Below, piece after piece: positions 9,722 to 36,759 of a stretch of 64,000 bases of DNA. The DNA is from a virus. The stretch spans positions 10,168 through 74,167 of the IMG/VR virus record IMGVR_UViG_3300046798_000124, one strand, 5' to 3'. Made by a program: the position numbers and the translations under genes. The notes under the pieces were generated by a model, which did not search any database, was not told where the DNA came from, and saw nothing but the letters and a program-made list of their open reading frames with translations. The stretch's first letter is position 1. Each line of letters opens with the position of its first letter.

Positions 9722-10191
9722 CAGTCACCTCCCACCTCAAAGCTCGACAGCACCGTGGCGGTATGCAGAAGCTCCGGCTCGCCGTCAAGCTGGCGACGGG
9801 CCTGTTCGGCCACGTAGGCGTCGAAGCCCGGATCACGGTTCTGCTCGGCGCGGCGGGCGGTCTCTAGCTTCGCTCCAGGACAGCGTGGTCCCGCGTGGAT
9901 AGCCCGTCCGTACGGCAGGACGTGCCGCAGCGCCTCGAGGCGGGTCGGGCCGAGCCTGGGGATCGACCGCAACAGCCAGTCCGGGCAGGGGATGAGCACC
10001 CGGTAACAGGTGATACCTGCCCGCCTGATGGCCATGATGGTGTCCCGATCCAGACCCAGCCCCGACCACTCGGCCTCGGCGATCTCATCGTCGTACGGGT
10101 CGTGCCAGTAGATCCGGTGCGCCTCCCAGAAGGGAGCCAGATGGGCGGTGCTGGTGCGGTAGCGGCGCTCGGGCGGCACGATCATGACCAT
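9721..10191 (-). CDS. protein with an RNA polymerase alpha-CTD-like HhH domain
   Basis: LGLDRDTIMAIRRAGIT...LLRSIPRLGPTRLEALRHVL resembles the alpha-CTD pattern LxLsxRxxNxLkRAGI...LLxIxNLGxKSLxEI. Confidence 0.6.
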   Translation of the reverse strand: MVMIVPPERRYRTSTAHLAPFWEAHRIYWHDPYDDEIAEAEWSGLGLDRDTIMAIRRAGITCYRVLIPCPDWLLRSIPRLGPTRLEALRHVLPYGRAIHAGPRCPGAKLETARRAEQNRDPGFDAYVAEQARRQLDGEPELLHTATVLSSFEVGGD

Positions 10192-33960: not shown

Positions 33961-34197
33961 ATGCAGAGCCAGCGCAACGGTGCCCAGAGGCCAGTCTCGC
34001 TCGACACCTTCAAGCTGATGCGCGGCGAACAGCTGCACCACCGCGAGCGCCAGGACGCCCACGACGACGGGGTGATGCAGGGGTTCTTCCTCGGCCTGTG
34101 TGCAGCGGTGCTCGGCTGGTTCGTGATCTCGGGCCATCTGGTGCGCCTGCTCTACGCCCTCGTCAGATCCATGCTGGCGCTGGACGGTGGAGCGTGA
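33961..34197 (+). CDS. small membrane protein
   Basis: GAGGAGG RBS; hydrophobic C-terminal half. Confidence 0.55.
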   Translation: MQSQRNGAQRPVSLDTFKLMRGEQLHHRERQDAHDDGVMQGFFLGLCAAVLGWFVISGHLVRLLYALVRSMLALDGGA

Positions 34198-35246
34198 GTG
34201 CGCCTGCCCATCGACCGGAGAAAACAAGCCCGGCGACCCGGCCGAAACTGGAGCATTTCGGTGCGATCATCAACGAGTTCATCTCGATCTGGAAAACGCC
34301 GGGCAAGATGATCTCAGCGCCATGGGCACACCCGCGCGTTCTCCACTTCGACTTGCACGCGGCCACCGGTCATGGCGTTGAGGGGCGGGACGGCAGTGCG
34401 TTGATCGCACTCCGCAACATGCTCGCCCGAGATCTCTCTTTCGAGTCGTTTCTCTTCGAGCAGAAGCGGTACAAGTGCGACGCGCTCCGAGAGAACATCG
34501 TGGCGATGCTTCAAGAGCATCGCGAGGCGGTGGTGGAGGGTCCGTTTCGCTCGTATCTCGGCCACACCGCGAGACGCACACCCTGTATCGAAGTGTGCCC
34601 GGTCTGTCACCCGTCGGATCTCGCTGCCTGGATCGACGACCACGCCCACATCATCATCGGCGACCACAATGAGACCATCGATGGTGTCCTGGCCGATCTC
34701 CGTGGACGACTGAGGAAGCGCGCCTACGGCCTGGTCGTGGCCGACCCGTACGGGATCAGTGATCTCGGTCAGGAGCCGCTCATCAAACTATCGCGGGAGC
34801 CACTTCTCCAGCGCGTCGATCAACTCGTCAACGTGGCGACGACAGCCGCGAAGCGCGGCGGCTACCAGCCGGCCTACGACCTCCTCGCGCCCATCCAGAA
34901 GACACGCCGCCTCGTGCGCGAGACGTTGCCAGGCGGCGTCGATCACGGCTGGAACTGGACGATGTTTCTGTTCTCAAACTGGCGTGCCGTGCCGGCGTTC
35001 ATCCGCCTCGGATTCCACGACACGCAATCACCGGAGGGGAAGCAGCTGCTGGACCGCTTCGGCCTCACCGAGCGCCAGCGCAGAGGTGTGACCTCAGCCC
35101 CTTTCGCGATGACGCGGGGTACCGGAGCTACGCCGAGTACCTCGCCCACCCCCGGTTTCGGGCCGTGCGAGCCGATGTCTTCGCCCGCTGCGGCGGCCTC
35201 TGTGAACGGTTCGACCGCACCCGAGCCTCAGAGGTCCATCACGTGA
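34194..35246 (+). CDS. three-Cys-motif partner protein (TcmP/GMT-like SAM-binding fold)
   Basis: TRPKLEHF...FDLHAATG...GSALIAL...GDHNE...VADPYG; adjacent to DUF5131; GTGA coupling at the start. Confidence 0.7.
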   Translation: MSAPAHRPEKTSPATRPKLEHFGAIINEFISIWKTPGKMISAPWAHPRVLHFDLHAATGHGVEGRDGSALIALRNMLARDLSFESFLFEQKRYKCDALRENIVAMLQEHREAVVEGPFRSYLGHTARRTPCIEVCPVCHPSDLAAWIDDHAHIIIGDHNETIDGVLADLRGRLRKRAYGLVVADPYGISDLGQEPLIKLSREPLLQRVDQLVNVATTAAKRGGYQPAYDLLAPIQKTRRLVRETLPGGVDHGWNWTMFLFSNWRAVPAFIRLGFHDTQSPEGKQLLDRFGLTERQRRGVTSAPFAMTRGTGATPSTSPTPGFGPCEPMSSPAAAASVNGSTAPEPQRSIT

Positions 35247-35338
35247 GATACCCGCCGTGGGGCACATTCGACACCGAAGAGAACCTGCTTGCAGTCTGCC
35301 GCCGTTGCCACTGCGAGATCCATGGGAAGGACGCATGA
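35099..35338 (+). CDS. HNH endonuclease domain in the -1 frame of the TcmP-like gene, no own start codon seen
   Basis: PFRDDAGYRSYAEYLAHPRFRAVRADVFARCGGLCERFDRTRASEVHHVRYPPWGTFDTEENLLAVCRRCHCEIHGKDA*; stop overlaps the next ATG (ATGA). Confidence 0.7.
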   Translation, partial: PFRDDAGYRSYAEYLAHPRFRAVRADVFARCGGLCERFDRTRASEVHHVRYPPWGTFDTEENLLAVCRRCHCEIHGKDA

Positions 35339-36759
35339 CGGTACAGCTCGCGGTGCTCAACAGCCAGGTCATGACGGTCGAGGATCAACTTGCTGAGAGC
35401 GAGGCGATCATGGAGCGGGGGCTCTCGAGTTTCCTTGAAGTCGGCCGTGAGTTGATGAAGATCAGGGCTCACGAACTCTACAAGACGAGCGGCTACCGGA
35501 GTTTCTCCGACTACCTGATGGCCCGCTGGCCCGACTTAGGGCGGGCCTACGCTGATCGTGTCATTGCTGCAACAAGGGTCGTAGACAACCTCGCGCCAAT
35601 TGGCGGCACATTACCCGTAAGCGAGTCGCAAGTCCGACCACTGACGGTTCTTGAAGCACCTGAGCAGCTTGAAGCGTGGCAGCGTGTTTTGGAGAAGACC
35701 GGCAAGAAACCCGTCACCGCCAAGCTGGTCGAGCAGACGGTCGAGGAGTTGAAAGCCGAGATCGCCGCCCGCATCGAACCCGAAGAGGACGAAGCGGAAG
35801 AAGAGACACCGGACCTCGATCACCCGCCGATCTACCACGACGATGAAGAGGACGATGAAGAGGACGAGGAGGGTGTCCCTGAGCCTGATGCCCCGGACGC
35901 CGAGCCCGAACCCGAAGAGACGCCGTTGCTGGTCCTCCAGGTTGTTGCCGAGCAGGCTCCAACTATTCGTCCCTACTACGACCTTCCCGCCTGGGAGGCG
36001 CTCTCGGCCGATGAGCAGCAGTGGGTGATTGCACACGCCGCCGACAAGAGCGGCGCAGGATTCAATCGGACGAACGATAACGTCGAGTGGGCGCTCTGGA
36101 CCTGGAATCCCGTCACCGGCTGCAATCATGGGTGCGACTACTGCTACGCCCGCGACATCGCCAATCGCTTCTATGAGGATCTGCCGGAGGGTGAGCGATT
36201 CGCGCCGGTCTTCCGCCCGAATCGACTCCACGCGCCCCGTCGGATGAAGGTGCCGGCCGCCGCCGCGCGGAATGTCGGCGAGAAGAACGTCTTTACGGGG
36301 TCGATGACCGACCTCTTCGGCAAGTGGGTGCCGCAGGACTGGATCGACGCCGTCTTTCATGAGGTCGTCCGTGCCGAGGAGTGGAACTTCCTCTTCCTGA
36401 CGAAGTTCCCGCAGCGCCTTGCCGAACAGCAGTGGCCCGAGAACGCCTGGGTGGGCACGACCGTCGACCGTCAGGCGCGGGTCGCCACCGCCGAGCGGGC
36501 GTTCCGAGGTGTCACAGCCGGCATCAAGTGGCTCTCGGTCGAGCCGATGCTCGAGCGGCTGACCTTCTCGTCGCTGGAGATGTTCGACTGGGTCGTGATC
36601 GGCGGCGCCTCCGAGAGCAGCCAGACGCCGGCGTCGCAGCCACCGACGGAATGGGTCGAGCACCTCGTCCGTCAGGCCCGCGCCGCCGGCTGCCAGGTCT
36701 ATTTCAAGACCAACCTCGGCTATCGGCCTCGCGAGTACCCACAGGGAGTGACACGATGA
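35335..36759 (+). CDS. DUF5131 (phage Gp37/Gp68 radical-SAM-like) protein with N-terminal helical domain and acidic linker
   Basis: VEWALWTWNPVTGCNHGCDYCYA, VFTGSMTDLF, LTKFP, WLSVEPMLE, DWVVIGG, VYFK motifs. Confidence 0.9.
   Translation: MTVQLAVLNSQVMTVEDQLAESEAIMERGLSSFLEVGRELMKIRAHELYKTSGYRSFSDYLMARWPDLGRAYADRVIAATRVVDNLAPIGGTLPVSESQVRPLTVLEAPEQLEAWQRVLEKTGKKPVTAKLVEQTVEELKAEIAARIEPEEDEAEEETPDLDHPPIYHDDEEDDEEDEEGVPEPDAPDAEPEPEETPLLVLQVVAEQAPTIRPYYDLPAWEALSADEQQWVIAHAADKSGAGFNRTNDNVEWALWTWNPVTGCNHGCDYCYARDIANRFYEDLPEGERFAPVFRPNRLHAPRRMKVPAAAARNVGEKNVFTGSMTDLFGKWVPQDWIDAVFHEVVRAEEWNFLFLTKFPQRLAEQQWPENAWVGTTVDRQARVATAERAFRGVTAGIKWLSVEPMLERLTFSSLEMFDWVVIGGASESSQTPASQPPTEWVEHLVRQARAAGCQVYFKTNLGYRPREYPQGVTR

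Follow-up and report, generated by a model that had tools for sequence, protein, structure and literature searches.

How is a nuclease expressed when its reading frame has no start codon of its own and lies across the end of the gene that precedes it? This question is raised by a 64,000-nucleotide stretch of DNA from a soil phage (IMG/VR record IMGVR_UViG_3300046798_000124, positions 10,168 to 74,167; hereafter the window, meaning the whole of this stretch), in which a TcmP-like gene and a DUF5131 gene flank the reading frame of a small HNH nuclease, offset by -1 from that of the TcmP-like gene. Comparison of this junction with its homologues makes it very likely that a programmed -1 ribosomal frameshift at a slippery heptamer produces, in addition to TcmP, a TcmP-HNH fusion of 381 residues.

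An HNH reading frame without a start codon

The junction contains the following features:

34194..35246, + strand: TcmP-like open reading frame (ORF), 0 frame, 350 residues including a 46-residue tail
35099..35105, + strand: slippery heptamer C_CCT_TTC, on the conserved TcmP C-terminal (L/A)PF motif
35106..35246, + strand: 0-frame tail of the TcmP-like ORF, a wrong-frame reading of the HNH gene that is not selected as protein
35105..35338, + strand: HNH nuclease domain, read in the -1 frame, with 77 codons past the slip and then TGA (35336-35338)
35335..36759, + strand: DUF5131 protein, three-Cys and radical-SAM-like (PF07505, CxxxCxxC)

The TcmP-like ORF begins at a GTG that overlaps the stop codon of the ORF upstream (GTGA). 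Near its end it reads TCA GCC CCT TTC GCG, so that C_CCT_TTC constitutes an X_XXY_YYZ heptamer in register with the TcmP frame. Positions 34763 to 35338 form an open stretch in the -1 frame, within which the first ATG, GTG or TTG is a GTG at 35165. This GTG lies 15 codons into the conserved N-terminal segment of the HNH protein. No near-cognate start with a ribosome-binding site was visible in this frame on reading the window sequence and its relatives. The HNH frame and the upstream ORF have 47 codons of overlap. At its other end, the HNH stop codon (TGA, 35336-35338) overlaps the ATG at 35335 of the DUF5131 gene, which has its own ribosome-binding site (GGAAGGA). When translated from 35054, the -1 frame product scored 23.7 bits against the Pfam HNH family PF01844, for which the cut-off is 21.4. 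It also matched several PHROG HNH families (best E = 2e-9), and the catalytic HH, N and CxxCH...H residues are conserved. An earlier note on the window, made from its letters alone, had described this anatomy: an in-frame heptamer at 35099-35105, a convincing HNH domain in the -1 frame with no ATG, GTG or TTG in the roughly 55 codons read upstream of it, an ATGA overlap of HNH stop and DUF5131 start (35335-35338), and a low-complexity 0-frame tail after the heptamer. Codon register and family matches bear out each of these points, and the tail is the HNH gene read in the wrong frame.

The description of the upstream protein as TcmP-like held in part. Its own score against NCBIfam TIGR04474 (33.2-33.9 bits) does not reach the curated cut-off of 53, but 54 of 61 aligned homologues matched this family at E <= 1e-3, and an AlphaFold model (predicted local distance difference test score, 86) has a class I methyltransferase fold, the closest structure being RlmJ (Foldseek E = 1e-6, template-modelling score about 0.45). 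A sequence search of the PDB with the same protein returned only a weak match to RlmJ. The model places the PF motif just past the last helix, at a domain boundary.

Slippery motifs accompany junctions that lack an HNH start

Scans of viral and genome contigs based on TcmP found no loci, and an HNH alignment was used instead, which drew 57 loci from viral contigs, 80 from metagenomes and 12 from genomes. In these loci the HNH is almost always located between a TcmP-like gene and a DUF5131 gene; among the 57 viral loci, DUF5131 lies downstream in nearly all and TcmP upstream in many. Stand-alone HNH relatives (P0004-P0035) are 74-87 residues long, with 55-68% identity over the aligned stretch. 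Their N-terminal segment, Y..YAEYL.HP.F, hardly varies, and the core HH...N...CxxCH is likewise common to them. Homology of the window HNH to these relatives reaches upstream to approximately the heptamer, and initiation at GTG 35165 would therefore delete a conserved part of the protein.

We classified 115 distinct HNH junctions, using the first conserved HNH tyrosine as the anchor. In 44 of these loci the HNH carries a start codon of its own, located at the TcmP stop or close to it and typically in an ATGA or GTGA overlap, and in 12 TcmP and HNH form a single in-frame ORF (for example L006, L017, L032 and L140, the last from Actinomadura cremea; protein P0122 is of the same fused kind). Fourteen loci, the window included, have a start-less HNH in the -1 frame of TcmP, and six more have the same offset with candidate starts only far upstream. 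Roughly a fifth of the cassettes have the start-less -1 arrangement. We found a canonical heptamer, in register with TcmP and positioned such that a -1 shift yields an open fusion, in 12 of the 14 start-less loci, compared to an in-register heptamer in only one of the 44 loci with their own start (Fisher p = 1.3e-9, a value that overstates independence because the loci are related). The motifs are distributed as follows:

CCCTTTC or CCCTTTT: start-less loci (window, L010, L016, L019, L058, L059, L121, L134, L137)
CCCTTTC/T motif: loci with far-upstream starts (L097, L113/L124, L130) and L086 (unclassified)
TTTTTTC: L100 (start-less); L060, L076 (far-upstream starts)
AAAAAAG: L122, L126 (start-less)
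CCG CTT TTC, with a U_UUC tetramer: L105, L109 (start-less, no canonical heptamer)
In-register U_UUC tetramer: L002, L118 (CTT TTC); L022-L025 (GCT TTC)

A survey in E. coli placed H_HH.U_UU.Y and V_VV.A_AA.R among the most efficient -1 heptamers, found high-level frameshifting on C_CC.U_UU.C, and ranked U_UU.C as the second most shift-prone tetramer (PMC4066793). By these efficiencies, all of the junction motifs belong to efficient classes.

The proposal in the earlier note that TcmP alone and a TcmP-HNH fusion are both made, by way of a frameshift, is supported by this distribution. Homologues are neither always fused nor always separately started, since part of them combine a start-less HNH in the -1 frame with a slippery motif at the equivalent site. 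Because in-frame fusions occur in nature (L006, L017, L032, L140 and P0122), a TcmP-HNH fusion protein is viable.

In three other in-frame fusions (L067, L080 and L095), the corresponding site still reads CTC CCT TTT. One-base changes in the T-run may convert fused and frameshifted forms into one another.

Selection on the slippery motif and on the HNH frame

The heptamer falls on a conserved TcmP C-terminal motif, (L)PF or LF(DL), and many TcmP proteins of loci with their own HNH start end a few residues from this motif. In the frameshift class, the PF codons and the base before them are always NNC CCT TTY, even as the residue before the proline varies (Ala in the window, His in L058 and Leu elsewhere); in the PF motifs of own-start loci the proline codon is CCG. 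Judged from this codon usage, the slippery motif is evidently under selection at the nucleotide level, beyond what the protein requires. The TcmP proteins of the window and L058 are only 35% identical, and the heptamer is kept in both.

Over the 126-nucleotide overlap, differences between the window and L058, L059, L097 and L002 are about twice as frequent at third positions of HNH codons as at first or second positions, and identity is 55-79% in the HNH frame and 22-61% in the tail frame. The HNH frame is therefore selected, while the 0-frame tail is not. In a TcmP profile search, the tail aligned in 21 of the 148 non-self matches listed; the 18 tails that we read are of a 'PTPSTS' type, which is a wrong-frame reading of the HNH motif YAEYL. 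These wrong-frame tails in database TcmP proteins indicate that the arrangement is common and is routinely mis-annotated by gene callers. Protein P0002 (351 residues, TcmP 65% identical) carries a similarly long 0-frame tail that ends at the same place; the heptamers of P0002 and of the tail-bearing TcmP representatives are deduced from their proteins only. In public protein clusters (P0038-P0170), many TcmP entries have spurious C-terminal tails of 40-90 residues, with the overlapping HNH uncalled.

A tree of the TcmP core was built with the junction left out. Parsimony places 8-9 changes of the frameshift state on this tree, at least 4 of them on strongly supported branches, and the state occurs in at least 4 TcmP clades, where own-start and fused forms are found among the frameshifted ones. 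The loci therefore cannot be counted as independent samples, yet the frameshift state has been gained or kept several times.

Predicted course of the frameshift and candidate stimulators

In the mechanism that we propose, the P site of a ribosome at C_CCU_UUC would be occupied by tRNA-Pro paired with CCU, and its A site by tRNA-Phe paired with UUC. Some of the ribosomes would slip back one base, re-pair on CCC_UUU, and translate the HNH in the -1 frame as far as the TGA at 35336-35338, yielding a TcmP-HNH protein of 304 + 77 = 381 residues in which ...VTSAPF is predicted to be followed by RDDAGYR... (junction peptide VTSAPFRDDAGYR). If CCU is read by a tRNA-Pro with a GGG anticodon, standard decoding rules predict that the shift to CCC would exchange a G:U wobble for a G:C pair. 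Ribosomes that do not slip would produce the 350-residue TcmP with its meaningless 46-residue tail, stopping at 35246. The site would thus set the ratio of TcmP alone to nuclease-bearing TcmP, and the DUF5131 partner would be initiated at the ATGA overlap. The sequences show the anatomy of the junction, that it is correct and conserved, and selection on the HNH frame; the occurrence of slippage and its efficiency are inferred.

Two elements near the heptamer could contribute:

35114..35145, + strand: hairpin of 12 base pairs with one bulge and a 7-nucleotide loop, 8 nucleotides downstream of the heptamer
35082..35088, + strand: Shine-Dalgarno-like AGAGGTG, 10 nucleotides upstream of the heptamer

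The hairpin, which had also been noted earlier, folds as claimed and at the claimed distance (-20 kcal/mol). Its stability is marginal compared to that of shuffled sequences (z = -1.84; 11 of 200 shuffles fold equally well), and it is absent from the closest relatives. AGAGGTG is a possible stimulator; it is not conserved in the relatives L058, L059 and L097. Rfam gave no match at the window junction. A different hairpin marks one clade (L016, L019, L113, L121, L130, L134 and L139), in which GCGGCG-loop-CGCCGC begins exactly 7 nucleotides past the heptamer, with variation in the spacer and loop. The idea of a universal stimulatory hairpin was dropped, as the downstream folds of 15 frameshift-class loci mostly had insignificant z-scores.

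Evidence against frameshifting and other explanations

Several observations weigh against a programmed frameshift. The relatedness of the loci tempers the Fisher test, and the tree forces only at least four changes. The motif efficiencies come from E. coli and may not transfer to an actinobacterial host. The window hairpin is not conserved in L058, L059 or L097, and no stimulator common to all loci was found. Lastly, the first zinc pair of the window HNH reads CERF, compared to CERC in at least 90% of relatives (TGC to TTC, 35189-35203), such that the window copy lacks the full set of four zinc-ligand cysteines in two CxxC pairs. This change, which is identical in four other samples, could signal decay of the HNH; an extra cysteine four residues before the first one (ARCGG), specific to the clade and common to the window, L058, L059 and L002, might substitute as a ligand. 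None of the frameshift-class loci has lost the HNH catalytic motif.

Of the other explanations, the one that survives best is still quite improbable: the HNH would be translated separately, from GTG 35165 or from a non-canonical codon, overlapping the TcmP tail. Most relatives do express a separate HNH of 74-87 residues, and GTG 35165, the first canonical start, would leave a CxxC...HH...N...CxxC...H core of 57 residues. However, a protein started there would lose Y..YxEYLxHP.F, a segment that the window and its clade preserve perfectly; such conservation would be unexpected if the segment were untranslated. There is also no Shine-Dalgarno sequence ahead of 35165, and separate translation leaves unexplained why heptamers occur almost only in start-less loci.

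Slightly less probable again is that the HNH is a decaying, unexpressed remnant that has lost its ATGA start. The intact ORF in at least 20 diverged loci from at least four clades argues against decay, as do substitutions that fit the HNH codon pattern, the retention of catalytic residues, the conservation of the slippery motif at synonymous sites, and the identical sequence in four further samples. What such a remnant would account for is the frame relation, since a single mutation in an ancestral ATGA overlap would eliminate the TcmP stop along with the HNH start and would yield exactly this offset, together with the loss of one zinc-ligand cysteine from the window HNH.

Transcriptional slippage is known at long homopolymer runs, and some relatives contain long runs (A9 in L122 and L126; T6 in L019, L060, L076 and L100). 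RNA polymerase slippage at such a run would give transcripts with one added base, which would be translated normally into the fusion. We consider this explanation very improbable: like most C_CCT_TTC loci, the window has only C4 followed by T3, runs too short for the known requirement (established knowledge; reviewed in PMC5009743), and only ribosomal slippage imposes an in-register X_XXY_YYZ constraint.

A one-base assembly or sequencing error that splits a true in-frame TcmP-HNH fusion, for which the short homopolymer pair and the in-frame fusions of relatives might speak and which the earlier note had asked to be checked, is rejected as next to impossible, because over 35099-35105 the Logan contigs of four further samples, from soil or rhizosphere, had 0 differences and 0 gaps, these four independent assemblies agree base for base with no indel at the heptamer, and the frame offset is common to P0002 and at least 20 contigs of different studies.

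The cassette and its setting

The DUF5131 protein is 474 residues long. Its C-terminal half is PF07505 (148.5 bits, threshold 28.9), its translation contains the motif CNHGCDYC, and it matched PDC-M41B (E = 1.7e-41); a sequence search of the PDB with this protein gave no match. The protein begins with an N-terminal extension of 230 residues (window 35335-36030) that includes a strongly acidic linker (EEDEAEEE...DDEEDDEEDEE), for which there was no Pfam match and only a weak PHROG match.

The phage is temperate, and the cassette opens its rightward early operon, beside a divergent CI-like repressor (helix-turn-helix and peptidase S24 domains). Downstream of it are a sub-threshold Rad52-like match, a helix-turn-helix protein, an IstB-like ATPase and an N6/N4 DNA methylase; the methylase domain is at the C-terminus of a 514-residue ORF (window 39631-42074) that overlaps the preceding IstB-like ORF by about 234 nucleotides. 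BLAST searches of GenBank phages with DNA and HNH protein queries returned no match. Isolate genomes that carry related cassettes belong to Streptomyces, Actinomadura, Streptacidiphilus and Streptosporangium, and for this reason the host is probably an actinomycete.

The cassette resembles the known 'three-Cys-motif' pair of TcmP and DUF5131 (TIGR04474 plus PF07505; PADLOC PDC-M30 and PDC-M41) in that a CxxxCxxC DUF5131 protein is encoded directly downstream of a methyltransferase-fold protein with a weak match to TIGR04474. It differs in that this partner falls short of the curated TcmP cut-off, the two partners are separated by a small HNH of their own, the DUF5131 protein bears the long N-terminal extension, and the cassette lies in a temperate phage's early operon instead of in a bacterial defence island. 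The window HNH has the same N-terminal segment and core as stand-alone phage HNH proteins but, unlike them, is start-less, overlaps the upstream ORF, and has CERF in place of CERC.

The three proteins probably provide a DNA-directed activity that is expressed early. One elaboration is possible but doubtful: the frameshift would fix a sub-stoichiometric share of nuclease-bearing TcmP in a TcmP/DUF5131 complex, which would combine novel radical S-adenosylmethionine (SAM) chemistry on DNA with nicking or cleavage early in infection, in the service of anti-defence, host takeover or self-marking. If so, separate, fused and frameshifted junctions would be evolutionary settings of nuclease dose. The modification-plus-cleavage, self/non-self role suggested for the cassette in the earlier note is speculation.

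Comparison with known frameshifts

Well-known -1 frameshifts in bacteria and phages include those of dnaX (A_AAA_AAG), orfA-orfB of IS3/IS911, and the phage tail chaperone genes G/GT. Like these, the TcmP-HNH junction has an in-register heptamer of an efficient class and a start-less downstream ORF in the -1 frame, and it is predicted to give two products per mRNA at a set ratio; in both, homologues are fused or separate, and one clade of the TcmP-HNH loci has the GC hairpin 7 nucleotides downstream. Unlike them, it involves a new gene family for such events, a methyltransferase-fold TcmP-like protein and a small HNH within a radical-SAM cassette. It also uses three different heptamers at one junction according to lineage, with no universal stimulator found among the loci, and is known here from sequence comparison, in contrast to the classical cases.

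We found no description of a TcmP-HNH frameshift in the literature, and a 2016 review of recoding does not mention HNH or radical-SAM cases. The TcmP-HNH junction, found again in many unrelated phage contigs, is thus a probable new and widespread case of programmed frameshifting. It would add to the few -1 frameshifts listed for bacteria and phages apart from those of insertion sequence elements, dnaX and tail chaperones. Its comparative support is unusually clear, in that three top-class heptamers are interchanged at one junction, beside natural fused and split forms. It also corrects annotation: the HNH is uncalled and TcmP is given a spurious tail in the window contig and in about one-seventh of related TcmP database clusters. 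A frameshift would imply that the HNH is physically attached to, or present in fixed proportion with, the TcmP partner of an uncharacterised radical-SAM enzyme, and this coupling constrains hypotheses about the TcmP/DUF5131 system, which has so far been listed only as a defence candidate.

The frameshift form is also present in a cultured isolate, Streptomyces sp. NPDC005322 (L139; NZ_JBEXGF010000005.1, 2465-2510), which makes the prediction testable at the bench. Its junction reads CTC CCT TTC, with no HNH start within 150 nucleotides, and is followed by a 7-nucleotide spacer and a GCGGCG/CGCCGC hairpin.

At three other loci, a start-less HNH lies in the +1 frame of TcmP: L031 (2792-2862), L073 (anchor at 2501) and L107 (anchor at 1384). 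The junction of L031 reads AAA TTT CCT, and its relative L092 has an ATG 15 nucleotides before the conserved tyrosine. These three loci may use +1 frameshifting or non-canonical initiation.

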